Assembly: GCA_963767925.1 (NCBI GenBank)
Contig: CAVYGB010000002.1
Span: 384,001-448,000 of the forward strand
Source of the DNA: an uncultured delta proteobacterium
GTDB taxonomy: Bacteria; Myxococcota_A; Polyangia; Fen-1088
Length of the DNA stretch: 64,000 nucleotides
Reading direction: 5' to 3'
The position numbers and the translations under genes were made by a program. The notes under the pieces are model-generated. The model made no database searches. It saw nothing but the letters and a program-made list of their open reading frames with translations, and was not told the DNA's origin. Position 1 is the stretch's first letter. The number at the start of each line of letters is the position of its first letter. Shown piece after piece: positions 3,458 to 51,346 of this stretch.

Positions 3458-4836
3458 TCAGACTTGCTGCATGAATGTGTCGCACTCGAGGCCTTCGAGG
3501 CGACGGGAGATGATGTTGAGGCCGGAGACGCTGGTGATGGCGGTGGCCAGGGCGAACCCATAGCCGTAAAACGCCGGGCCCAGCGACTGGGTCATCAGGG
3601 TCAGCATGAGGTTGGACGTGGCGAACAGGATGCTCAGCCACAAGCACCGCGCCCCGCTGGTCCAGATAGAACAGCACGTTGAACACCGCCAGCATCAGCA
3701 CCTGGGTGCCGACGCCCGCCAGGTCGACGAAGAACAGCTGCCGGTAGAGCGGCGAGATCCCCATGACGTCGAGGATGCGGGGGCCGATGAGGAACAGCAG
3801 CAGCAGGGTCACCCCCTGCACCTTGAAGATGTCGCCCATGCCCTGGCGGGCGGCGCTCGACAGCGTCCCCTTGAGGCGCTGGATGTTGACCAGCGAATCG
3901 CCGCTGCGGACCGCGCTGATAAAAGGCGTCGTAGCTCTCGGCGAAGTCGGTCTCGACCCGCACCAGGAACACGGCCATCCCGGGCACGATCGACAGGTAG
4001 GCCAGGAAGATCGGGATGTCGTAGATGATCGAGGCGCGCAGCGGCCCGATCACCGGGTCGGAGACCAGCGGGTTGGCCCAGAAGGCGAACTTGTCGACCC
4101 AGACGCCCAGGTTGTAGAAAAACCCGGTGAAGCGCCAGGCTGAGGTAGCTCGCGCCGGCCGAGGAAGTCGAACGACACCAGGATGGCGCCCGCGCGGGTA
4201 GCGCCGGATCACCGCCAGGAACAGCAGGAACAGCAGCACGATCTGCCCGACCAGGAAGCCGGTCAGCAGGCCGGCCAGCCCCCGGCTGCGAGCGCACAGC
4301 GCCCCGCCCACCGAGGTGCCGTAGCCGATGAGGAAGCCGACCAGCACGCTCCGGTAGGCCTTGAGCCCCGACAGCAACACGACCACCACCCACAGGTCGC
4401 ACAGGGTGACGAAGCCGATGATCATGAGGGCCCGGTAGCTGAGCGGCCAGCCCCTCGAACCCGTACCAGACCACCGCGAAGGAGAAGGACCCCGCCACCA
4501 GCGTGGTCAGGGCCAGCGCCCCGAACAGGTTGGGCAGCACCTTCGACTCTTCCTTGGCGAACAGCCGGTCGGCGATGAACCGGGTGAACATGAGCTGCAG
4601 AAAGCCGGTCAGGATCAGCGACCCGGCCATCAGGTAGGTGATCGACACCAGGAACTGGCGCAGGGCCAGCGACTGCACCCGGGTCACGCTGAGGATGCCC
4701 GATCGCCCATGACGCCCAGGATCGACAGCACCCAGGGGCCCGAGCTGATCATCCCCGCATAGCCATACGCGCGCAGCAGCCCCCAGAAGCTGTTCGCGCG
4801 CATCAGCCTACGAAGCTCGAACCCGATTCCTGCCAC
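3458..4836 (-). CDS. pelG: Pel exopolysaccharide transporter PelG (frameshifted)
   Basis: VAGIGFELRRL, YGYAGMISSGPWVLSI, FTRFIADRLF, FYNLGVWVDKF, YDIPIFLAYLSIVPGMAVFLVRVETDF, FYGYGF, ending TFMQQV. Confidence 0.92.
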
Positions 4837-6420
4837 CGGCAGCCTCCAGCGCGGTCCCGTAAACGCCACGGTAGGCGGCGAACATCTGATCGCGGGTGTA
4901 AAAACGCTGCACGCGCTCGAGCCCGGCGGCGCGGGCCCGGCCCCAGGTGACCGGGTCACGCAGCAGGGCCACGATGGCCGATGCGGTCTGCTCGGGCGCG
5001 GCGATCGGCACCACGCTGCCGGCGGGCCCCAGGGCCCGGTCCTCCGGCAGGCGCCCCTCGATCAGCTCGCGGCAGGAGCCCACGTCGGTGGCCACCACCG
5101 GCACGCCGCTGGCGAAGCTCTCGAGGATGACCAGGGGCAGGGCCTCGCTGATCGAGGTCAGCACGGTGAGGCCCAGCTTGGGGAAGATCTCGTCGGGCTT
5201 CTGGAAGCCGAGGAACTTCACCTTGCCCCCCAGGCCCAGCGCTGCCCACCAGCTCGTGGCACTCGCGGGCGTAGTCCCGGTCCTCGTCCTCCGGTCCCAC
5301 GATCCAGGCCTCCGCCTCGGGCATGGCCGCCACCACCGTGCGCATGGCCCGGATGAAGCCGCGCACGTCCTTGATCGGCACCACCCGCCCGATCAGGCCG
5401 ATCACCGGCGGCGGACCCGGTCGCCCTCCCGGCGGGGGGCCGGCGGAGAAGCGCTCGAGGTCGATGCCGTTGGGGATCACCCGGGTGCGGCCTCGGTCGG
5501 CGCCGTCGCTGATCTGGCGGTGCCCGGTTGCCCTCGTAGAGCGCGATGATGGGATCGGCGGCGGCGTAGGCCAGCCGGCCGATGCTCTCGAAGAAGCGGA
5601 GCCACAGCCGGCGCACGTAGGTGCGGTCCTCCTCGAGGCCGCTGCGCAGCTCCTCGGCGGCGTCCTTGATCCAGTCGGCGTGGGCCAGGTCGATCTTGCG
5701 TTCCTTGGTGTAGATGCCGTGTTCGGTGAGCACGTAGGGGCACTGGCGCCGGTGCTGCAGCAGCGAGCCCAGGAAGCCGGCGTACCCGGTCGAGACCGAG
5801 TGCAGCACCTTGAAGGGCGGCATCCGGGCGGCGATCTCGGCCATCTTGAACAGCGGGCCGTGCATCGTGCGCACGGTCCAGAAGTAGTCGACGAAGGAGG
5901 GTGAGGTGCAGAAGCGGTGGTAAGAGGCGCAGATCTGGTGCCAGGTCTCGTCGCTGTGCAGGAAGTCGCGCCAGCCGATGCCGTCGGGCGGTCTCGATCT
6001 CCGCCACCGCCGCCCGGATGCCGTCCGAGATGGCCCGCCCCCGGATCGCGGAGCTCGTCGTGCAGGCGGGCGAGCTGCTCGAAGCTCTGGACCTTGCTCT
6101 TGCGCGAGCTGCCCCTCCGGCGGGGCGAGGGCTGCTCGGCCAGGTAGTGGGTCTCGACGTGCACCAGGTTGGGGGGCAGCGTGTAGCGGATGGGCGAGTA
6201 GTCCTCGGGCGACGATCCGATGAACACGACGCCGAAGGTCAGCTCGGGCAGGCCGGAGATGATCTCGTGCACCCAGCTCGACACGCCGCCCGCTGACGAA
6301 GGGGTAGGTCCCCTCGAGCAGCAGGCCGACGTCGGCCCCCTCCCCGGCCGGCAGCCGGGGCAAGGTGGCGACCAGCTTCTTGCTGCCGGTTCTGGTGAGG
6401 CTCTTGATGGAAGGTTTCAC
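4808..6420 (-). CDS. pelF: GT4 glycosyltransferase PelF (frameshifted)
   Basis: LLLEGTYPFVSGG, SSWVHEII, SFVDYFWTVR, HSVSTGYAGFLG, LTEHGIYTKER, IPNGID, GRVVPIKD, LTSISEALPLVILE, TDVGSCRE. GTG start overlaps the pelE stop. Confidence 0.93.
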
Positions 6421-7421
6421 GACCACTGCTCCACGATGGGGGCCAGGCCGGGCCGCAGGCGGGCCGACCGGGCGAACACGGCCACCTGCCGGCGGACCTC
6501 GAGCGGGCGCGCGCTCGAGGTAGTCGGCCTCGGCCAGGTAGGGGCCGACCACCTCGATGGGCAGGCCCCGGCGCACCGACTCCTCCAGCATGGCCCGCGC
6601 CTCCTCGGGCCGGCCCAGCATCAGCAGCGCCCGCCCGGCCAGCAGCGCCATGCGCGGGCTGCCGTTCTTGTTCCGCCGGACCTCCGAGGAGTGCCAGAGC
6701 ACCTGATCGAGCGAGAAGGCCAGCAGCTCGCCCTCGACGAGGCCGCCGTAGACCAGCTCCCAGTACAGCTCGGCCAGGCGGCCGTGGGTGGTCGGCGGCA
6801 GGCGCGGGCGCTGCTGCCCCTCGCCGCCCGCGGTGCCGAGCAGCTCCTGGATCTGGGTCTGGATGTCGCGCTCCTTGCGCTCGAGGACGGCGTAGGCCAG
6901 CAGGCGCACGTCGTCGACCGGGTCGCGCAGGGCCAGGCGCAGGAGGTGCATCGCCGACCGCTCGGGCAGGCTGCGGCAGGCCAGCACCACCCGCAGGCGG
7001 CTCTCCGGATCGGGGCTGTGGCGCAAGATCCCCTCGAGCGAGCCAGGGCCGTAGCGCCGGTCGAGCTCGGTGTTGAGGGGGTTGCCGGGCAGGCTGGGGG
7101 GCATCGGTCTCGCGCAGCCCCGCCCGCTTGCGCTCGATCGGGCTGCGGGCGCGCACGGCCAGCATGGCGGCCAGCCCGGGCAGCCCGAACACCGGGAAGA
7201 AGGTGGCGAACCCCCCGATCAAGCATGGCGTCGGGGAAACGCGGCCGCCGGCCCTGGGGAGTCACGGCGAAGACCAGGGCGGCGGCGCCGCCGAGGGCGC
7301 CCAGCAGGTACAGGCCCACCGCCGTGTTGGGCACCTCGACGGCCCCCACCCCGAGGATCACCGCCTCGAGCTGGACGACCGCCGCCGCCAGCACGACGAA
7401 CCCGACCAGGAAAGATCTCAT
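6417..7421 (-). CDS. pelE: PelE (membrane protein with HEAT/TPR-like repeats; frameshifted)
   Basis: N-terminal TM segments, FFPVFGLPG, YGPGSLEGIL, LRLALRDPVDDVRLLAYAVL, LAELYWELVYGGLVEGEL, PYLAE. Confidence 0.85.
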
Positions 7422-41460: not shown

Positions 41461-42747
41461 TCAGCCGGCGGCGGCCGACCCGACCGGGGCCACCCCGACG
41501 GGCGCGCGCTCGGCGGCGGCGATGAAGGCCTGGACCTGGGGGTAGACCAGCTCGCGCCAGCGCCGGCCACTGAAGATGCCGTAGTGTCCGGCGCCGCCGA
41601 CGGTGAGGTGCCGCTTGCGCCCCGCCGGCAGGCCGGCGCACAGGACGTGGGCCGCCTCGGTCTGGCCGAGGCCGGAGATGTCGTCCAGCTCGCCCTCGAT
41701 GGTGAACAGCGCGGCGCTCGCGATGGCCTCGGGCGCCACCCGCTCGCCGCCCACCTGCCAGAGCCCGCGCGGCAGCAGGTGCTGCTGGAACACGATGCGG
41801 ACGCAGTCGAGGAAATACTCCGCCGGCATGTCGAGGGCGGCGTTGTATTCGTCGTAAAAGCGGCGGTGCTCGGCGGCGTTCTGGGCCTCGCCCCGCACCA
41901 GGTGCTCGTAAAAGGCGAGGTGGGAGCCGAGGTGGCGGGCGGGGTTCATCGCCATGAAGTTGCCGAGCTGGAGAAAACCGGGGCAGACGCGGCGGCCCCG
42001 GCCGGGGTAAGGCGCCGGCACCTGGTGCAGCAGGTAGCGCTCGAACCAGCTCAGCGGCTGGGTGGTGGCCAGCCGGTTTACCTCGGTCGGGCTGAACCGG
42101 GTGTCGAGGGGCCCGCCCATCAGGGTCAGGCTGCGCGGCTCGCGCTCGCCGGCCGCCGCGATCAGCGACGCCGCCGCCAGCGCCGGGACCGCCGCCTGAC
42201 AGACCGCCAGGAGGTGCAGGCGCTCCGGGCCGATGTGGCGGATGAACGTCCGCAGGTAGCCGACATAGTCCTCGAGCGAGAAGCCGCCCCGATCGGTCGG
42301 CACCAGGCGCGCGTCGGTCCAGTCGGTGACATACACCTGATGGCCGCCGAGCAGGCTGCGCACGGTGTCGCGCAGCAGGGTGGCGTGATGGCCCGACAAG
42401 GGCGCCACCACCAGCACCACCGGATCGCGGGCCAGCGCCCCCACCACCTCCGCCCGGTCGGCGAAGCGCTGGAACCGCTGCAGGCGGCAAAACGGCAAGT
42501 CGAGCACCGTCTGCTCGACCACCGCCACCTCGGCGCCGTGGGCCTGCACCGACGGGATGCCGAAGGTCGGCTTGTCGTAACGTTTGCCGAGCCGATAGAG
42601 CAGCTCGTAACCGGCCGCTACCTGCGCTGCGCCAGGGAGCTGGGAGAGCCAGCTCTCCGGGGCCGAGAAGATGTTGGCGCCGGCCCGGGCCAGATCCAGC
42701 CCCGGTCCGACGAAAGCGCGGTTGAGCTCGTGAAGCGCGTACAACAC
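41461..42747 (-). CDS. phaZ: Intracellular polyhydroxyalkanoate depolymerase
   Basis: KRYDKPTF, VAPLSGHHATLLRDTV, VYVTDW, LAVCQ (catalytic Cys), MGGPLDTR, PGFLQL, FYDEY, EGELDDISG, GHYGIFSGRRW. Confidence 0.93.
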   Translation of the reverse strand: MLYALHELNRAFVGPGLDLARAGANIFSAPESWLSQLPGAAQVAAGYELLYRLGKRYDKPTFGIPSVQAHGAEVAVVEQTVLDLPFCRLQRFQRFADRAEVVGALARDPVVLVVAPLSGHHATLLRDTVRSLLGGHQVYVTDWTDARLVPTDRGGFSLEDYVGYLRTFIRHIGPERLHLLAVCQAAVPALAAASLIAAAGEREPRSLTLMGGPLDTRFSPTEVNRLATTQPLSWFERYLLHQVPAPYPGRGRRVCPGFLQLGNFMAMNPARHLGSHLAFYEHLVRGEAQNAAEHRRFYDEYNAALDMPAEYFLDCVRIVFQQHLLPRGLWQVGGERVAPEAIASAALFTIEGELDDISGLGQTEAAHVLCAGLPAGRKRHLTVGGAGHYGIFSGRRWRELVYPQVQAFIAAAERAPVGVAPVGSAAAG

Positions 42748-42887
42748 CTCGCTGACCCCCTGTCGCGTCCACAACGCGACAAGCGGGTATCATACCAGCT
42801 TCACATCCGGTCTCGACAGCAATCCCTGTCGCTCACTGCGCTGTCGGTCACTGAAACGGTCCTTCGGTTGTGTCCCTCGTGCCGTTC

Positions 42888-43685
42888 CTACTGTGCGGTC
42901 CAGCCTCCATCCACCACGATGGTCTGTCCGGTGATGTTGCGGGCGGCGGGCGAGAGCAGGAAGGCGGTGATGCCGGCCAGCTCGTCGAGTCCGATGAACA
43001 CGCCTTTCGGCATCGGGGCGAGCATGACCGTGCGGATCACCTCCCCTTCGGGCAGCCCGCGCACCCGCGCCTGGTCGGCGATCTGCCGGTCGACCAGCGG
43101 CGTCTTCACGTAGCTCGGGCAGATGGTGTTGATGGTGACGTCGGTGTCGGCGGTCTCGAGGGCGAGGGCCCGGGTCAAGCCCACCAGCCCGTGTTTGGCC
43201 GCCACGTAGGCGCTCTTGAAGGGGCTGGCCACCAGGGCGTGGATGCTCCCCATGTTCACGATCCGGCCGAAGCCCTGCCGGCGCATGCCGGGCAGGGCCG
43301 CCCGGGTCAGGCGGGCCACCCCGATCAACATCACCTGGATCAGCAGCTCCCAGCGAGCCGGCGGAAACTCCTCCAGCGGCGCGACATGTTGCAGGCCGGC
43401 GTTGTTCACCAGCACCTCGATCGGCCGCCCGAGCCGGGTCAGCGCGGCCGCGACGCTGGCGTCCGAGGTCACGTCCAGCACCAGCGCCTCGGCCGCCCCG
43501 CCCGCCTGGCGGATCCCGGCCGCCACCCCCTCGACCGCGCCGCGCTCGAGATCGCTCACCACCACCGCGTGGCCGGCCGCCGCCAGCTCCCGGGCCAGGC
43601 CGGCGCCGATGCCGCTGGCGGCGCCGGTGATCAGGATGTGGCGGGCGTCGGCGCGGGACCCGGCCCCCGGGGGTGAAGGACCCAT
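42888..43685 (-). CDS. bdhA: D-3-hydroxybutyrate dehydrogenase
   Basis: TGAASGIG, NNAGLQHVAPLEEFP, SIHALVASPFKSAYVAAKHG, ICPSYVKTPLVDRQI. Confidence 0.92.
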   Translation of the reverse strand: MGPSPPGAGSRADARHILITGAASGIGAGLARELAAAGHAVVVSDLERGAVEGVAAGIRQAGGAAEALVLDVTSDASVAAALTRLGRPIEVLVNNAGLQHVAPLEEFPPARWELLIQVMLIGVARLTRAALPGMRRQGFGRIVNMGSIHALVASPFKSAYVAAKHGLVGLTRALALETADTDVTINTICPSYVKTPLVDRQIADQARVRGLPEGEVIRTVMLAPMPKGVFIGLDELAGITAFLLSPAARNITGQTIVVDGGWTAQ

Positions 43686-43696
43686 CGCGGCGCCCG

Positions 43697-44686
43697 CTAC
43701 CAGTCGAGCAGGGCCGCGCCCCAGGAGAGGCCGCCCCCGAACCCGCACAACATGACCCGCGAGCCCCGCTGCAGCCGCCCGCTCTCCCGGGCCCGGGCCA
43801 GGGTCAGCGGGATGCTGGCGGCGGCGGTGTTGCCGTAGGTCTCGACGGTCGTCACCGTCCGTTCCATCGGCAGCTCGAGCGACTTCATCATCGCCTCGAT
43901 CATCCGCAGGTTGCTCTGGTGCAGCACCACCAGGTCGAGGTCGTCCGGCTCGAGCTGGTGCTCGTGCAGCAGCGCCCGGATGGTGCGGGGGACGGTGGTG
44001 ACGGCGAAGTCCCAGACCTTGGGCCCGTCCATCATGAAGGTGTTGAGGCGCCGGGCCAGCACGTCGGCGTCGACCGGCTGGCGGGTGCCGCCGGCCGGCA
44101 CCTGGATGCAGCGGCTGCCCCGGCCGTCGCTGCCCAGCCGGAAGTGGATGCGCCGGTCGTGCTCCTCGGTCTGCGACAGCAACACCGCCCCCGCCCCGTC
44201 GCCGAAGAAGATGCAGGTGCGCCGGTCGTTCCAGTTGAGCACCTTGGTGAAGGCGTCGGTGCCGATGACCAGCGTGTTGCGAAACTGCTCGGGCGCCGCC
44301 AGCATCATGCTCTGGGCCACGTCGAGGGCGAACACGAACCCGGCGCAGACCGAGTTGACGTCGAAGGCCGGGCACTGCCGCTCGCCCAGCCCCAGCTTCT
44401 CCTGGATCAGGCAGGCCACCGCCGGCTGCGACTGATCGGGCGTCGCGCAGGCCACCACGATGAGGTCGACCTCCGACCGATCGAGGCCACCCTGGCTCAG
44501 GCAGCGCAGCGCCGCCTGGCAGCCCATGTCGCTGGGGGCCTCACCGGGCGCGGAGATCCGCCGCTCCTCGATCCCGGTCTTGGTGAGAATCCAGTCGTGC
44601 GAGGTGTCGACCTGGCGGGCCAGCTCCTCGTTGCTCATCGTCCTGCTGGGTACGTAGGCCCCCACGCCGGCCACTCGAATGCCCAT
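43697..44686 (-). CDS. KAS III-family condensing enzyme (FabH or NphT7-like acetoacetyl-CoA synthase)
   Basis: WILTKTGIEERR, TPDQSQP, AFDVNSVCAG (Cys), FGDGAGA, VPAGGTRQP, HQSN, TVETYGNTAAASIP, GFGGG. Confidence 0.9.
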   Translation of the reverse strand: MGIRVAGVGAYVPSRTMSNEELARQVDTSHDWILTKTGIEERRISAPGEAPSDMGCQAALRCLSQGGLDRSEVDLIVVACATPDQSQPAVACLIQEKLGLGERQCPAFDVNSVCAGFVFALDVAQSMMLAAPEQFRNTLVIGTDAFTKVLNWNDRRTCIFFGDGAGAVLLSQTEEHDRRIHFRLGSDGRGSRCIQVPAGGTRQPVDADVLARRLNTFMMDGPKVWDFAVTTVPRTIRALLHEHQLEPDDLDLVVLHQSNLRMIEAMMKSLELPMERTVTTVETYGNTAAASIPLTLARARESGRLQRGSRVMLCGFGGGLSWGAALLDW

Positions 44687-44700
44687 GGTCAACGCGCCTT

Positions 44701-45708
44701 TCAATCCCGCAGCGACGGTTGCGCCTGCTCCCAGAGCAGGGCCCCGCCCATCCGGACCTCCCGCTCGCGCAGGAACCAGCGGCACTTGGTCCGCCCGTAT
44801 TCGCGCAGCTCCTCCAGCATCTCGGGGCGGCGATCCAGCTTCGACCGGTAGTTCAGCTCGCGATCGAGGGCGATGCGCGAGACCTGGATGGGGTGGAAGC
44901 GGGGATCGTTGATCCGCCCCTGGGCGATGGCCCGGTTGATCTCGTCGATGAAACGCAGCTCCTGCTCCATCGACAGGTTGCCGGCCAGGGCGTTGCGGCG
45001 GTCGAGGATCTCGTGGGTCTCGGTGGGGATGCGGGGGCAGGTGCTCGAGTTGATCTGGATCAGCCACAGCTCGTCGAGCTGGTGCTCGATGAGGTCGTGG
45101 ATCGGCGGGTTCTGGGAGAAGAGGCCGTCCCAGAACACGCCCCGCCCCGGCACGTGGACCGCCCGGAACAGCTCCGGCACGGCGGCCGAGGCCAGCAGGC
45201 TCTCGACGCACAGGTCCTCGCCGGTGAAGATCTCGAAGTGCCCGCTCAGGACCTCGACCGCGCCGATCTGGAGGATGGGAGCGCCCGGCTGGCGGGCCAG
45301 CCGGCGCAGCTCCTCGAAGTCGAAGTGTTGCTCGAGGATGGCCCGGAAGCGCTCCTCCCCCAGGGGCGGCAGGTGGTAGGGGCTCACCTCGGGCAAGATC
45401 ATGAGGTCGCGCAGGCCCATGATCCCCATCAGGGTCTGGTTGAGGATCCGGTCCCCCATCTCCCGGGCCGAGACCGCCTGCCAGAAGGCCTGCAGCTTCT
45501 GGACCGCCCGCTGGGGATCGCCCCGCAGCAGGCCGTCCCAGGCCAGGGCGGCGCACATCGCCCCGCCCGAGGTGCCACTCAGCGCCACCACCTCGACGTC
45601 CTCCGGGAGGTTCGCCAGCAGGTTCTGCAGGACGCCCGCGGTGAAGGCGGTGTGGCTGCCTCCTCCCTGGCAGGCGATCGCTACCCGACTCCGTGTCCCG
45701 TTTGACAT
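44701..45708 (-). CDS. Patatin-like phospholipase/esterase (candidate PHA depolymerase)
   Basis: CQGGGSHTAF, GTSGG (Ser nucleophile), LASAAVP, WDGLFSQNPP. Confidence 0.88.
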   Translation of the reverse strand: MSNGTRSRVAIACQGGGSHTAFTAGVLQNLLANLPEDVEVVALSGTSGGAMCAALAWDGLLRGDPQRAVQKLQAFWQAVSAREMGDRILNQTLMGIMGLRDLMILPEVSPYHLPPLGEERFRAILEQHFDFEELRRLARQPGAPILQIGAVEVLSGHFEIFTGEDLCVESLLASAAVPELFRAVHVPGRGVFWDGLFSQNPPIHDLIEHQLDELWLIQINSSTCPRIPTETHEILDRRNALAGNLSMEQELRFIDEINRAIAQGRINDPRFHPIQVSRIALDRELNYRSKLDRRPEMLEELREYGRTKCRWFLREREVRMGGALLWEQAQPSLRD

Positions 45709-45714
45709 GGCTCT

Positions 45715-46872
45715 CTACTCCGTTCCTGGGTTGGCGTGACCGGACTGGTTTGCGGGGGAGGGTGCGGGGCGGGAGGCGGGCGTGGAGCGCGCGGCCATCC
45801 AGCGCGTCGCCTCGGGCCAGAGCGTGCGCTGGGCCTTGCCCCCGACGATCAGCCCGACGTGCCCGGCGTCGATGGTGAACGAGCGGATGTCGCGGGACCC
45901 GACGAGGGGGCGGATGCCCTCGGTCGAGGCGGGGGCCACCAGGTGGTCGTTGCGGGCGGTGAGCAGCAGCAGGGGGCAGACGATCCGGCTCAGGTCCACC
46001 GCCCGCTCCCCGAGGTGGAGCTGGCCGCGGGTCAGCTCGTTGCCCTGGTAGAGCTTCTTGACGAACTCGCGGAAGGTCTCGCCGGCGACCGGGATGTTGT
46101 CGTTGATCCAGCGCTCCATCGCGAAGAAGCTCGACACCGCCTGCAGGTCGTCCATCTGCTCGTAGAAGGCCAGGTTCTTCTCCAGCATGTTCTGGACCGG
46201 CTTCATGCTCAGGAAGCAGGCCTGGAGGAACCAGGCCGGGCAGTTGCCGTGGGCGTCGACGAAGGCGTCCACGTCGAAGTGCTGGCGGTCGGCCCAGAGC
46301 TGCAGGAGGGACTCGCGCCCGGAGAAATCGATGGGGGCGGCCAGCAGGGTGAGGCTGCAGATCGTCTCGGGGTGGAGCGCCGTGAACAGCGCCGATATCG
46401 TCCCGCCCATGCAGTAGCCCAGCAGGTGCAGGTCGCGGCGGCGGTGGGCCCGCAGGATGAAGTCGACGACCCGCCCGAGAAAGCCGCCCACGTAGTCGGC
46501 CAGCGCGAGGTGGCGGTCGCCGTCGCCCGGCACCCCCCAGTCGATCAGGTAGACGTCGAAGCCCTCGCGCAGGTAGCGGGCGGCCACGCTCTTGTCCGGC
46601 TGCAGGTCGAGGATGTAGGCCCGGTTGATGAGGGCGTAACAGAGCAGCACCGGCTCGGCGTGGGTGGCGGGCGTCTCGCGCCGGTAGCGCAGGAGCTTGA
46701 ACATCGGCTCCTCCAGCACGACGTCGCGAGGGGTGGTGCCGACCCTCGTGCCCGAAGCCACCTCGACCACCTGGGGGAAGCTGAGCAGCCGCCGCCACAT
46801 GCGCTGCTGCTCGGCGAACATCGCCGCCAGGGGCTCGAAGTCGACCCGCGCCCGTCCCGTTCCCGCGTCCAT
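45715..46872 (-). CDS. phaC: PHA synthase PhaC, class III/IV-sized
   Basis: GTTPRDVV, YALINRAYILDLQP, VYLIDWG, lipase box GYCMGG, MERWIND, RNDHLV, GHVGL; about 385 aa; GGAGGAG RBS. Confidence 0.93.
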   Translation of the reverse strand: MDAGTGRARVDFEPLAAMFAEQQRMWRRLLSFPQVVEVASGTRVGTTPRDVVLEEPMFKLLRYRRETPATHAEPVLLCYALINRAYILDLQPDKSVAARYLREGFDVYLIDWGVPGDGDRHLALADYVGGFLGRVVDFILRAHRRRDLHLLGYCMGGTISALFTALHPETICSLTLLAAPIDFSGRESLLQLWADRQHFDVDAFVDAHGNCPAWFLQACFLSMKPVQNMLEKNLAFYEQMDDLQAVSSFFAMERWINDNIPVAGETFREFVKKLYQGNELTRGQLHLGERAVDLSRIVCPLLLLTARNDHLVAPASTEGIRPLVGSRDIRSFTIDAGHVGLIVGGKAQRTLWPEATRWMAARSTPASRPAPSPANQSGHANPGTE

Positions 46873-46912
46873 GGGGGCTCCTCCGGTTTCCATCTTCTGG
46901 TGGTCCCGGCCT

Positions 46913-47707
46913 TCACATCGCCATGCCGCCGTTGACGTCGAGGACGTGGCCGGTGACGAACCCGGCCGCCGGCGAGGCCAGGTAGAGCACGCTGGCCGCG
47001 ATCTCCTGGGGATCGCCGAGCCGGCCGACCGGCGTCTGATCGAGGACCGATTGCAGGGCGGCCTCGGGGACACCCTCCAGCATGCGGGTCTTGACGAAGC
47101 CGGGCGCGATCGCGTTGACCGTGACGCCCTTGCGGGCATATTCGCGGGCCAGGGCCTTCGTCAGCCCGATCAGGCCCGCCTTGGCGGCGGCGTAGTTGGT
47201 CTGCCCGAAGTTCCCGATGCGGCCCACGATGCTCGAGATGTTGATGACCCGCCCCCACTTGCGCGCCGCCATCCCGTCGATGAACCGCTTGGTGACGTCG
47301 AAGACGCTGTTGAGGTTGGTGTTGATCACGCTGTCCCAGTCTGGCCGCTCCATCTTGCGGAAGGTGCCGTCGCGGGTGATGCCGGCGTTGTTGACCAGGA
47401 TGTCGATCACCTGAAAGTCGTCGATCACCCGGGTACACATCTTCTCCACCTCGGCCGGGATCCCCACGTCGAAGGGGTAGGCCTTCGCCTGCCTGCCCCC
47501 CTCCCGGATCTCCCGGCAGACCTGCTCGGCCGACTCGGCCCCCAGCGGGCTGGATCCGATGGCGACGTCGGCGCCCGCCGAGGCGAGCATGAGGGCGCAG
47601 GCCCGCCCGATGCCGCGCGAGCCCCCGGTTATGAACACCTTCTTGCCGAGCAGGCTGAAGCCGGGGACGAGGACGCCGCTGCCGGGGACGAGATCGAGAG
47701 ATGTCAT
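46913..47707 (-). CDS. phaB: Acetoacetyl-CoA reductase
   Basis: TGGSRGIG, NNAGITRD, INISSIVG, GNFGQTNYAAAKAG, ALAREYARKGVTVN; directly upstream of phaC. Confidence 0.85.
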   Translation of the reverse strand: MTSLDLVPGSGVLVPGFSLLGKKVFITGGSRGIGRACALMLASAGADVAIGSSPLGAESAEQVCREIREGGRQAKAYPFDVGIPAEVEKMCTRVIDDFQVIDILVNNAGITRDGTFRKMERPDWDSVINTNLNSVFDVTKRFIDGMAARKWGRVINISSIVGRIGNFGQTNYAAAKAGLIGLTKALAREYARKGVTVNAIAPGFVKTRMLEGVPEAALQSVLDQTPVGRLGDPQEIAASVLYLASPAAGFVTGHVLDVNGGMAM

Positions 47708-47997
47708 GGGAGGTTCTCCTGTCCGAGTCGCGCCGGACCGTTGCGGCCGGTCGAGAGGGCCAAAGTTCTGAGGTTCCGTTGCATGAGGTCCAGGAACACC
47801 GGCGACCTCAGGTAGCGATCGGAGGCGCGGGTCACCTCGGCCAGCCAGGGGACGCGCTGGCGGCGGGAATCGGCGAGCAGAGCCGCCGCCGCCAGCAGGC
47901 CGCCGCCGCCGACCGCCCCCATCTGCTGGCACAGGCGCAACCACTGCTCGGTGAGGGCGACGAGCGGATGGGGGGGGGTGGGTGCGGGGGGAATCAC
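47704..47997 (-). CDS. Small hypothetical protein in the PHA operon (PhaE-fragment-like)
   Basis: WLAEVTRASDRYLRSPVFLDLMQRNL; stop overlaps the phaB ATG. GTG start inferred. Confidence 0.55.
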   Translation of the reverse strand: MIPPAPTPPHPLVALTEQWLRLCQQMGAVGGGGLLAAAALLADSRRQRVPWLAEVTRASDRYLRSPVFLDLMQRNLRTLALSTGRNGPARLGQENLP

Positions 47998-48028
47998 GGG
48001 GACTCTCCGGCGGGCGTCGGCGGTTCCG

Positions 48029-48460
48029 TCAGGAGACCTCGGTGGCCGACTCGGACTGGGCCTTCTGGACCATCTCCGCGGTCCGCTCCGACCACTTCTG
48101 GAACTCGCGGAACTGCGTCTCGGACTGCTGCTTGAACGTCTCGAACAGCTTGCGCCCGAGGTCTTCGGCCACCTTGCGGTAGTCCTCGGGGGACTTGGCC
48201 TCCGAGACCCGGAAGGTCTGCTCGACCGCCTGGATGGCCGACTTGTAGGCGTTGTCCAGCGAGGTCCGGTGGTCATTGAGCATCTCGAGGGTCAGATCGA
48301 CCCAGCGCTTCTGCAGATCGCGGGCCCACTCGGTCGAGGCGCCGGTGGCGCTGGTGGGCGCGGCCTGCCACTGCTGGGTCCATTGCTTGAAGACGTCCTG
48401 CTGCATCTGCAGGGAGGACTCGGATGCCTTGCGAAAGCTCTCGAAGATCTGATCGAACAT
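48029..48460 (-). CDS. Amphipathic helical protein, phasin- or PhaE-like
   Basis: MFDQIFESFRKASESSLQMQQDVFKQW...; 143 aa, Q/E/K-rich helices; GGAGGA RBS; first gene of the PHA operon. Confidence 0.7.
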   Translation of the reverse strand: MFDQIFESFRKASESSLQMQQDVFKQWTQQWQAAPTSATGASTEWARDLQKRWVDLTLEMLNDHRTSLDNAYKSAIQAVEQTFRVSEAKSPEDYRKVAEDLGRKLFETFKQQSETQFREFQKWSERTAEMVQKAQSESATEVS

Positions 48461-49375: not shown

Positions 49376-51346
49376 ATGTGCGGAATCGTCGGGCTGATTG
49401 ATCCAGCGCGGGTCGCGCCCTTCGGGCCGGGCGGGCCGGCGGCGGGCGAGGAGGCGGCGCCGGGCGAGGTGCGGGCGGCGCTGGCGGCCATGAGCCGGGC
49501 GGTGGCGCCGCGGGGGCCGGACAGCGCGGGGACCTGGTTCGCCCCCGGGGTGGCGCTCGGGCACCGCCGGCTGAAGGTCATCGATCTCTCGGACGCGGCC
49601 GCGCAGCCGATGGGCAACGCGGACGGATCGGTGCAGGTGGTGTTCAACGGCGAGATCTACAACTTCGCCGACCTGCGCGCCGAGCTCATCGCCCAGGGGC
49701 ATCGCTTCCGCAGCCGGTCGGACACCGAGGTCCTGGTGCACGGCTACACCCAGTGGGGCGAGGGGCTGCTCGACCGGCTGGTGGGCATGTTCGCCTTCGG
49801 GCTGTGGGACGCCCGCCGGCGGCGCTTGCTGGCCGCCCGCGATCGCATGGGGAAAAAGCCCCTGTACTTCGCCCAGGTGGTCCGCGCCGGCGCCCCGCCC
49901 CTGTTCGCCTTCGCCTCCGAGCTGAAGGGCCTGCTGCCGGTGCCCGGCTTCGAGCGCCGCCTCGACCCGGCGGCGCTGGCCCGCTATCTCACCTTCGAAT
50001 ACGTGCCCCCGCCCCGCTCGATCTTCCAGGAGGCGCGCAAGCTGGACGCCGGCGAGCGGCTGCTGCTCGACCTGGCCGGCGACGCCGGGGCGGCGCCCGA
50101 GGTGCGGCGCTACTGGGACCTGCCCCTCCCCACCGAACACGCGCCCTGGCCGGCGGCGCCGGCGGCCGAGGAGCTGACCGCCCTGCTGCGGCGGGCGGTC
50201 GAGCGGCGGCTGGTGGGGGACGTGCCGCTGGGGGCCTTCCTGTCGGGGGGCCTCGACTCGTCGGCGGTGGTGGCGATGATGGCGGAGATCGCGGGCGCCG
50301 ACCGCATCGAGACCTTCTCGCTGGGGTTTGCCGAGCCCTCCTTCGACGAGAGCGCCCACGCCCGCCTGGTAGCCCGCCACCTGGGGACCCGGCACCACGA
50401 GCTGCGGCTGGACGCCCCCACCCTGCTGGCCACCTTGCCCGAGGTGACGGCATTCCTCGACGAGCCGCTCGGCGACGCGTCCATCGTGCCGACCTTCCTG
50501 CTCGCCCGCTTCACCCGGGGGCAGGTGACGGTCGCGCTGAGCGGCGACGGGGGCGACGAGCTGTTCGCCGGCTATCCGACCTTCGCCGCGGATCGCGCGG
50601 GGGGCCTGTACTTCGACCGGCTGCCGGCCCGCGCCCGGGCGCTGGTGGCGGCGGCGGCGGGGCGGCTGCGCGCGCGCAGCGGGTACTTCAGCCTGGACTT
50701 CAAGGTGAACCAGTTCCTGCGTGGCGGGAGCGAGCCGGGCGCCCACCGGCACCAGCGCTGGCTGGCCTCCTTCCTGCCCGAGGAGCTCGACGACCTGCTG
50801 GCGCCCGGGGCGACCGCCGCGCTCGCCGCCGACCGCGACCCCCTGGCCGATCTCGACCGCCTGGCGGGGGCCCGGGCCGGGTGGCACCCGCAGGATCGCC
50901 TGCTCGAGCTCTACGCCCGGTTTTATCTCGCCAACGACGTCAACGTGAAGGTGGACCGGGCGGCGGGGGCGGTCGGGCTGGAGGTGCGGGCGCCGCTGCA
51001 GGACACCGACCTCGTCACCTTCGCCTGCCAGCTCCCGCCCGCCCTGCGGCTGCGCGGCCTCACCCCGAAGTACATCCTCAAGCGGGCCATGCGCGGCCGC
51101 CTGCCGGAGTCGGTGCTGGCTCGGCGCAAGCAGGGGTTCGCGGTGCCGGTGGCCCGCTGGCTGCGCGAGGAGCTGCGCGAGCCGCTGCTCGACGAGCTGG
51201 CGCCGGCGAAGCTCCGGCGCGAGGGGCTGTTCCAGCCGGCCGCGGTTGCCCGGCTGATCGACGACCACCTGTCGGGGCGGCGCGATCGGCGCAAGCAGCT
51301 CTGGACGCTGTTCCAGTTCGAGCGCTGGCTGGCCGCCTGGGGCTGA
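49376..51346 (+). CDS. asnB: Asparagine synthase (glutamine-hydrolyzing) family amidotransferase
   Basis: MCGIVG, RGPD, LGHRRL, FNGEIYNF, RDRMGKKPLY, LSGGLDSS, SGDGGDELFAGY, RRKQGF. Confidence 0.93.
   Translation: MCGIVGLIDPARVAPFGPGGPAAGEEAAPGEVRAALAAMSRAVAPRGPDSAGTWFAPGVALGHRRLKVIDLSDAAAQPMGNADGSVQVVFNGEIYNFADLRAELIAQGHRFRSRSDTEVLVHGYTQWGEGLLDRLVGMFAFGLWDARRRRLLAARDRMGKKPLYFAQVVRAGAPPLFAFASELKGLLPVPGFERRLDPAALARYLTFEYVPPPRSIFQEARKLDAGERLLLDLAGDAGAAPEVRRYWDLPLPTEHAPWPAAPAAEELTALLRRAVERRLVGDVPLGAFLSGGLDSSAVVAMMAEIAGADRIETFSLGFAEPSFDESAHARLVARHLGTRHHELRLDAPTLLATLPEVTAFLDEPLGDASIVPTFLLARFTRGQVTVALSGDGGDELFAGYPTFAADRAGGLYFDRLPARARALVAAAAGRLRARSGYFSLDFKVNQFLRGGSEPGAHRHQRWLASFLPEELDDLLAPGATAALAADRDPLADLDRLAGARAGWHPQDRLLELYARFYLANDVNVKVDRAAGAVGLEVRAPLQDTDLVTFACQLPPALRLRGLTPKYILKRAMRGRLPESVLARRKQGFAVPVARWLREELREPLLDELAPAKLRREGLFQPAAVARLIDDHLSGRRDRRKQLWTLFQFERWLAAWG

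Follow-up and report, generated by a model that had tools for sequence, protein, structure and literature searches.

This work concerns a polyhydroxybutyrate (PHB) gene cluster in which an enzyme of the β-ketoacyl-ACP synthase III (KAS III; ACP, acyl carrier protein) family is encoded among the genes for polymer synthesis and turnover. The cluster lies in a stretch of 64,000 nucleotides, called the window from here on (G000:C2:384001-448000; 72% G+C), which belongs to a genome of 9.3 Mb in 13 contigs that is 84% complete. A genome scan placed its closest relatives among metagenome-assembled genomes (MAGs) labelled Polyangia, Polyangiaceae or Myxococcota. From codon-position G+C and the translations, eight genes were recognized within positions 41461-48460, all on the minus strand, and in the 5' to 3' direction they encode a phasin-like protein, a 97-amino acid (aa) open reading frame (ORF), PhaB, PhaC, a patatin-like protein, the KAS III, BdhA and PhaZ. 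A preliminary description of this DNA had reported the same eight co-directional genes, with gaps of less than 15 bp from phaC through to bdhA; read off the sequence, these gaps measure 6 bp (phaC-patatin), 14 bp (patatin-KAS III) and 11 bp (KAS III-bdhA).

The KAS III (P0002; 43697..44686, 329 aa) is a candidate acetoacetyl-coenzyme A (CoA) synthase. It scored 327.9 bits on TIGR00747 against a cut-off of 292.1 and 374.7 bits on NF006829 against a cut-off of 249, and both PF08545 and PF08541 of Pfam were found. Its translation holds all four motifs that had been singled out earlier, TPDQSQP, AFDVNSVC, VPAGGTRQPVD and TVETYGNT. Profile searches of the window detected no thiolase, save for a weak match on the KAS III itself, and no match to PlsX, FabD or an ACP, in agreement with the preliminary description, which had stressed the lack of thiolase, acp, fabD and plsX genes there. 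The cluster is also without a PhaG-like gene.

The PhaB-like NADPH ketoreductase (P0006; 46913..47707, 264 aa) reached 288 bits on TIGR01829 and 291.5 bits on the FabG model TIGR01830, each slightly under the cut-off; among solved structures, its best relatives were 4k6c and 3gk3, both acetoacetyl-CoA reductases. The polyhydroxyalkanoate (PHA) synthase PhaC (P0005; 45715..46872, 385 aa) is class III-like, with PhaC_N and the lipase box GYCMGG; its 361.5 bits on TIGR01836 narrowly miss the cut-off of 365.3, and it is the sole PhaC match found in the genome. Downstream of the KAS III gene are those for the 3-hydroxybutyrate dehydrogenase BdhA (P0003; 42888..43685, 265 aa; 342.2 bits on TIGR01963, where the cut-off is 307) and the intracellular PHB depolymerase PhaZ (P0007; 41461..42774, 437 aa; TIGR01849, 528.5 bits; PHB_depo_C, 282 bits).

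Linkage and kinship of the KAS III

The proteins of the window were mapped onto 39 related loci obtained from a scan in which one genome per species was kept. A KAS III 71-81% identical to the window enzyme is encoded at 29 of these loci, two of which are cut off upstream. In 24 of the 27 assessable loci phaC lies directly upstream of the KAS III gene or is separated from it by the patatin gene only, and the usual order is phasin-phaB-phaC-(patatin)-KAS III-bdhA-phaZ. Because the same order recurs in 24 related loci, the gene arrangement is not due to chance, and the linkage noticed at first in one genome is found in others as well. The remaining three loci (L018, L022 and L043; each at about 4500-6990) have the arrangement phasin-patatin-KAS III, and the 6 kb upstream of them contain neither phaB nor phaC. 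They are second copies, the same MAGs holding the full cluster at L028, L033 and L015, and the patatin gene and the KAS III gene apparently move together. Linkage within the cluster is conserved, and the cluster moves as a unit. Two further loci were partial matches with degraded-looking clusters, L048 (2203-7770) with a KAS III 61% identical and L053 (1505-8630) with one 47% identical; PhaC is absent or split in both.

Co-occurrence was then assessed across 201 sampled genomes of the class. Five of them, all from one family, have a KAS III orthologue at least 71% identical, and an orthologous PhaC (63-68% identity) was present in exactly those 5 genomes, adjacent to the KAS III in every case. 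Of the 26 genomes sampled from this family, the other 22 have neither orthologue, and the PhaC proteins found elsewhere in the class do not exceed 42% identity. Intermediate relatives were sought among the next-best KAS III matches of 10 other class genomes, and none was found there: all 10 are housekeeping-type FabH proteins with classical motifs, with fabD and/or plsX as neighbours in 7 cases, only a FabG-like gene in 2 and no recognized neighbour in 1. A search of 1.84 billion cluster representatives returned the clade's own representative at 557 bits and the next full-length match at 288 bits and 44% identity. The 120 closest proteins in a larger protein collection are, where named, generically called 3-oxoacyl-ACP synthase III. 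The pha-linked KAS III is thus an isolated clade. Identity within it is 71-84%, which together with a fully conserved catalytic triad indicates purifying selection.

A metagenome scan for sister contexts, made with the nearest relative from outside the clade (P0134), returned 80 loci, all of them FabH genes at 39-49% identity, and tblastn with the window PhaC kept no match at those 80 loci. Most of them belong to a large uniform FabH group (L087-L164) with the motifs TPDRxAP, AFDISAVCSG and KYANTSGGT, usually followed by a short-chain dehydrogenase/reductase gene, in which the HQxN pattern was unmatched where FabH has HQANxR. This group is probably the FabH of another phylum.

A housekeeping FabH was looked for in the genome and was found on contig C8 (G000:C8:3001421-3002401), where its 385 bits in the genome profile search exceed the score of the pha-linked KAS III. 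It has the context plsX-fabH-fabD-fabG-acpP, with acpP at G000:C8:2999318-2999542, and is 35.7% identical to the pha-linked enzyme; the latter is not encoded with plsX, fabD, fabG or acpP. The pha-linked KAS III is a second, dedicated copy, distinct from the housekeeping FabH. The genome holds a third match to the KAS III family, a chalcone-synthase-like type III polyketide synthase of 366 aa (G000:C13:233348-234184; L003 1495-2595, minus strand).

The preliminary description had likened the enzyme to NphT7 of Streptomyces sp. CL190 (EC 2.3.1.194), which is described as joining acetyl-CoA and malonyl-CoA without thiolysis and whose homologues are reported to stand last in the mevalonate clusters of actinomycetes (PMC5509993). 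Because of this gene order, NphT7 was represented here by orthologues chosen by synteny, namely KAS III genes directly downstream of 3-hydroxy-3-methylglutaryl-CoA (HMG-CoA) synthase (L056-L058). HMG-CoA synthase scored above the cut-off in 3 of 401 actinomycete genomes, and a KAS III gene follows directly in all three. The three enzymes carry TPDRPQP, AFDVNAVC(S/T)G, (A/G)GGSR and HQANGV(M/L)L, the last without Arg, so that the NphT7 motifs given in the preliminary description (TPDxxQP, AFDVNxVC and AGGSR) proved right. Their identity to the pha-linked KAS III is about 38-40%.

A FastTree phylogeny of 157 rows, in which the window enzyme and its relatives were joined by named FabH proteins and 133 full-length representatives (17 representatives outside 300-375 aa were dropped), showed the NphT7 group as the neighbour of the pha-linked clade. 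For a second tree IQ-TREE was run with LG+C20+F+G4 (posterior mean site frequency) on 70 rows: the 24 non-pha rows of a 39-row FastTree set, 9 of the 13 full-length pha-linked sequences, 36 of the 118 others and E. coli FabH, which was added. This united the pha-linked enzymes with the NphT7 side in a 22-row clade with 99% ultrafast bootstrap, not fully settled at a correlation of 0.989 where 0.99 is wanted, and 97% in the SH-like approximate likelihood ratio test (SH-aLRT). The clade is made up of 9 pha-linked rows (100/100), an NphT7 side of 11 rows that includes the three HMG-CoA-synthase-linked enzymes, and 2 single representatives. Outside it fall the FabH proteins of E. coli, of Bacillus and of the genome itself, as well as those linked to plsX. 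Representatives on the NphT7 side, from Streptomyces europaeiscabiei and Actinomadura macrotermitis, are labelled only "ketoacyl-ACP synthase III". A constraint that united the pha-linked rows and 22 classical FabH rows in one clade, a group defined after the tree was seen, cost 40.55 log-likelihood units and was rejected by the approximately unbiased (AU) test (p-AU 0.011). The proposed kinship with NphT7 therefore stands for the wider clade, with a grouping among ordinary FabH rejected, and does not extend to the NphT7 subclade proper.

Active-site and docking residues

Residues, in E. coli FabH numbering, were compared across three sets: the pha-linked sequences (130), the remaining members of the 22-row clade (13) and a set of 130 other rows. 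The Cys112-His244-Asn274 triad is kept in all 130 pha-linked sequences. Residue 87 is Gln in 130/130 of them and in 9/13 of the other clade members, and in only 2/130 of the other rows, which mostly have Phe or Met. Arg or Lys occupies position 152 in 129/130, 10/13 and 15/130 respectively, while Ser276, found in 107/130 of the other rows, is missing from every member of the clade (0/130 and 0/13).

The ACP-docking patch of FabH, which reportedly consists of Arg36, Lys214, Arg249 and Lys256/257 (Zhang et al. 2001), is of most concern here. Position 214, Lys or Arg in 107/130 of the other rows and in 4/13 of the other clade members, is never basic in the pha-linked sequences (0/130), all of which have Asp or Glu. 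Position 257 is Lys or Arg in 94/130 of the other rows and in none of the clade members (0/130 and 0/13). Arg249 is retained in 130/130 pha-linked sequences, 7/13 of the other clade members and 118/130 of the other rows; the window enzyme reads HQSNLRMI at this site, and the NphT7 orthologues have Val at 249 in 3/3. The preliminary description had raised the Arg of HQxNxR as a caveat, and it applies to the whole pha-linked clade. NphT7 lacks an Arg important for ACP binding, and this is suggested as the reason for its missing KAS III activity (PMC5432608, citing Okamura 2010). These results indicate that the ACP-docking face is altered in the pha-linked enzyme. By its sequence the enzyme would have lost two basic docking residues, one of them now acidic, and kept the residue thought most important, and this is the main uncertainty.

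The resemblance of its motifs to those of NphT7 is real when judged against the three HMG-CoA-synthase-linked orthologues. AGGSR, proposed to recognize CoA (PMC5432608), had been counted among these motifs and had to be given up as an NphT7 marker: it is common among ordinary FabH representatives, and the window enzyme carries AGGTR. Val111 was rejected as a marker as well, FabH 4ryb and the metagenome FabH group also having Val before the catalytic Cys. On the side of the reductase, the ACP contacts of E. coli FabG are presumably Arg129 and Arg172. The PhaB-like reductases have Gly at position 129 in 21/24 sequences and Lys at position 172 in 24/24, and the genome's own housekeeping FabG is also without Arg at the aligned position 129, hence this comparison is uninformative.

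Source of acetoacetyl-CoA

Textbook PHB synthesis begins with a thermodynamically unfavourable thiolase step, and engineers bypass the thiolase with NphT7, the decarboxylation of malonyl-CoA then pulling carbon into the polymer. From the sequence comparisons above, we consider that there is about an even chance that the pha-linked KAS III is a malonyl-CoA-dependent acetoacetyl-CoA synthase feeding PhaB and PhaC. The best explanation for the cluster is a self-contained module for PHB synthesis and turnover, with a dedicated KAS III in the place canonically held by PhaA. We infer that the malonyl donor is bound to CoA and that this KAS III, not the unlinked thiolase described below, supplies PHB synthesis.

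In such a pathway acetyl-CoA would acylate the active-site Cys of the KAS III, and malonyl-CoA would enter the same CoA tunnel and be decarboxylated by the His-Asn pair. The condensation would be irreversible, as in NphT7, with acetyl-CoA and malonyl-CoA giving acetoacetyl-CoA, CO2 and CoA. The PhaB-like reductase would form (R)-3-hydroxybutyryl-CoA, which the class III-like PhaC would polymerize on phasin-coated granules, and PhaZ, probably the patatin esterase, and BdhA would return the polymer to acetoacetate. That the route as a whole is native, ATP-driven and effectively irreversible has, in our estimate, slightly less than an even chance. In favour of a malonyl-CoA-dependent acetoacetyl-CoA synthase, the KAS III is directly linked, here and in 24 related loci, to phaB and phaC, the consumers of acetoacetyl-CoA; the reductase is nearest to solved acetoacetyl-CoA reductases; and no ACP, FabD or PhaG-like gene is part of the cluster.

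Several observations weigh against a malonyl-CoA-dependent acetoacetyl-CoA synthase. Arg249 is retained in 130/130 pha-linked sequences, position 36 is still basic in them (Lys 108, Arg 18, His 4), and none of the Arg249-retaining members of the NphT7-containing clade has a known activity. The reductase scores as high on FabG models as on PhaB models. In the phylogeny the pha-linked enzyme falls outside the 6-row NphT7 subclade (95/97), its sister relation to the NphT7 side is weakly supported (85/41), the group used in the AU test was chosen with the tree in view, and the non-clade rows are best matches to the query and not a curated reference set. In a yeast test, two KAS III enzymes bearing AGGSR gave no benefit (PMC5432608). 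Finally, a PhaA-type thiolase that could supply acetoacetyl-CoA is encoded, unlinked, at G000:C10:1064247-1065407, and its orthologues were detected at E <= 1e-80 in 45 of the 61 family genomes, with or without the PHB cluster.

The thiolase question deserves separate attention, as the preliminary description had spoken of a thiolase-independent pathway. Thiolases matching TIGR01930 are encoded on contigs C13, C10 and C8, with none in the window, and the one on C10 has, by its sequence features, the look of a biosynthetic acetoacetyl-CoA thiolase. The genome is consequently not thiolase-free, nor are most of its relatives, and the claim of independence cannot be upheld in that form. The distribution of the thiolase is unrelated to that of PHB, whereas the distribution of the KAS III matches that of phaC exactly, which favours the KAS III as the supplier of C4 units for the cluster. 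It does not prove that the pathway is independent of the thiolase. A tblastn search with the PhaA-like thiolase kept no match at the loci from the 10 other class genomes and the 80 metagenome loci, the 39 related loci not being part of that search. One relative with two pha-linked KAS III genes has its PhaA-type thiolase orthologue in two pieces with an internal TAG (G579:C9:289076-290249), which could be a pseudogene or an assembly error.

Another explanation is that the KAS III depends on ACP, making acetoacetyl-ACP from acetyl-CoA and malonyl-ACP of the housekeeping pool. A FabG-like reductase would then give (R)-3-hydroxybutyryl-ACP, and either the KAS III itself, through an acyl-CoA:ACP transacylase activity, or the patatin-fold protein would pass the acyl group to CoA before polymerization by PhaC. 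Arg249 and a basic residue at 36 in all pha-linked sequences would suit this, as would a KAS III that passes the FabH family cut-off, a reductase with 291.5 bits on the FabG model, and the pairing of the patatin gene with the KAS III gene in three loci. There is also a precedent for the last step, FabH being reported to turn R-3-hydroxyacyl-ACP into the CoA form for PHA synthase (PMC8231600, citing Nomura 2004). However, the cluster is without ACP, FabD and PhaG, position 214 is acidic in 130/130 sequences and 257 is never basic, two sites with Lys or Arg in 107 and 94 of the 130 ordinary FabH rows, and in the phylogeny the enzyme groups with NphT7, apart from classical FabH. Moreover, a dedicated second FabH is not obviously required for tapping the ACP pool, and the patatin gene is not in line in most related clusters. 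We therefore regard ACP dependence as unlikely, though deserving of serious consideration.

Perhaps the KAS III serves a copolymer instead, extending propionyl-CoA or butyryl-CoA with malonyl-CoA to 3-ketovaleryl-CoA or 3-ketohexanoyl-CoA, while the unlinked thiolase makes the bulk of the acetoacetyl-CoA. In FabH, Phe87 sets chain length, residue 87 capping the primer pocket (PMC8231600), and in the pha-linked enzymes this residue is Gln, not Phe, in 130/130; a PhaA-type thiolase is available in the genome and its relatives. Gln87 is, however, common to the HMG-CoA-synthase-linked NphT7 orthologues, and NphT7 uses acetyl-CoA (PMC5509993). No other gene of the cluster points to C5 or C6 monomers and BdhA is C4-specific by family assignment, and the copolymer seems improbable to us.

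Very improbable, finally, is a role outside monomer supply, in which the KAS III and the patatin-like lipase make or remodel a granule-surface lipid or small molecule, or the KAS III is a passenger through operon inertia: the three phasin-patatin-KAS III loci without phaB or phaC within 6 kb upstream would suit it, as would the many secondary pathways with KAS III-like enzymes and an NphT7 side that includes Streptomyces and Actinomadura proteins of unassigned role, but those three loci are second copies in genomes with a full cluster elsewhere, the conserved triad and the 71-84% clade identity speak for purifying selection, phaC co-occurs with and adjoins the KAS III in 5/5 genomes, and the cluster holds no further lipid genes.

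If the pha-linked KAS III is indeed a malonyl-CoA-dependent acetoacetyl-CoA synthase, bacteria would already have found the malonyl-CoA-driven solution to PHB synthesis in a natural operon. Bioplastic and butanol engineering would gain a new group of diverged enzymes, matched beforehand to a PhaB and a PhaC. Since the clade keeps Arg249, the rules for the choice of extender by KAS III (CoA versus ACP) would also become sharper: Arg249 would not be what divides CoA-using from ACP-using enzymes, and a better signature would combine Gln87 and a basic residue at 152 with positions 214 and 257 that are no longer basic. If the enzyme is instead ACP-dependent, the cluster would be a native case in which a dedicated FabH feeds short-chain PHA from fatty-acid synthesis, and our literature searches likewise did not find this described.

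Accessory genes and comparison with known systems

The first gene of the cluster encodes the phasin-like protein (P0008; 48029..48460, 143 aa), which has a weak Phasin_2 match (E 0.0016, 19.1 bits) under the Pfam cut-off. Its homologues head the cluster in related loci too, as a tandem pair in some. Next is the conserved small ORF of 97 aa (P0295; 47704..47997), with a GTG start and a stop that overlaps the ATG of phaB. In a tblastx search with the 324-bp phasin-phaB spacer, a match in the frame of this ORF was obtained at 22 of the 39 related loci, and in 21 of these 22 it sits between the phasin gene and phaB. The ORF has no Pfam or NCBIfam match; a weak lead came from the ESM Atlas (score 0.78), pointing to a cluster with PHA_synth_III_E in 31% of its members. 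Searching the genome, 84% complete, for a PhaE partner (PF09712) gave no match at E <= 0.1. Because no PhaE is recognizable in the genome, the 97-aa ORF, the phasin-like protein or both are candidates for the partner of the class III-like PhaC, and may be the one that is missing.

The patatin-like esterase (P0004; 44701..45708, 335 aa; PF01734, 61.9 bits) is an optional member of the cluster, with its gene in line between phaC and the KAS III gene in 7 related loci. It is probably associated with PHB granules. The patatin-domain protein Slr0060 was isolated with the PHB granules of Synechocystis (PMC7203880), and a patatin-like PHA depolymerase is known from Haloferax mediterranei by the title of a reference cited in PMC7137286.

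Scanning the cluster for promoters and terminators gave weak consensus matches only. One of these, a consensus match to a sigma-70-like promoter with an extended -10 element, lies at 42789-42816 (minus strand) in the 113-bp gap between bdhA and phaZ, and phaZ may have a promoter of its own. Divergently upstream of the cluster is a 656-aa ORF (49376-51346, plus strand) that starts with MCGIVG and resembles a glutamine-dependent asparagine synthase.

Among known systems, NphT7 shares with the pha-linked enzyme the KAS III fold, the Cys-His-Asn triad and membership of the wider clade (99/97), as well as Gln87, Val111, a basic residue at 152, a residue other than Ser at 276 and no basic residue at 257. 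In both cases the gene stands beside those for consumers of acetoacetyl-CoA, HMG-CoA synthase for NphT7 (PMC5509993) and phaB and phaC here. The pha-linked enzyme differs in having Arg249 where NphT7 has Val, Asp or Glu214 and Trp213 where it has Arg, and AGGTR in place of AGGSR. It is tied to phaB and phaC and not to the mevalonate pathway, occurs in Polyangia and not in actinomycetes, and lies outside the NphT7 subclade.

Housekeeping FabH, from E. coli or as the genome's own copy, is like the pha-linked enzyme in passing TIGR00747 and in its triad, Arg249, Trp32 and Arg151, and the best solved relative of the pha-linked KAS III is FabH 4ryb (278 bits). The pha-linked enzyme, however, has Gln where FabH has Phe87, Asp or Glu in place of Lys214, Ser or Ala in place of Lys/Arg257 and Ala in place of Ser276. 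Its identity to the genome's own copy is 36%, it lacks the plsX-fabD-fabG-acpP context, and a joint grouping is rejected by the AU test. A KAS III working with PHA synthase has been described for recombinant E. coli (Nomura 2004, per PMC8231600), but there over-expressed housekeeping FabH acted as an ACP-to-CoA transacylase, whereas here a dedicated, divergent paralogue is part of a native cluster.

Canonical phaCAB operons likewise bring together genes for a reductase, a synthase and a single enzyme forming the C4 keto-thioester, but here no thiolase is in the operon and the turnover genes bdhA, phaZ and patatin are included. The chemistry proposed here is that of the engineered NphT7-PhaB-PhaC route (e.g. 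PMC11539682), which the preliminary description had known as engineered and not as a native operon. Full-text literature searches, in which few subscription journals are covered, agree with this, giving engineered NphT7-PHB work and general PHA genomics and no native KAS III in a pha operon in the parts of those sources that they returned. The condensing enzyme here differs from the engineered case in being native and in belonging to another branch of the NphT7-containing clade. Both the chemistry and the components are known, and as far as these searches show, what is new is a native, conserved PHB cluster built around a KAS III related to NphT7.

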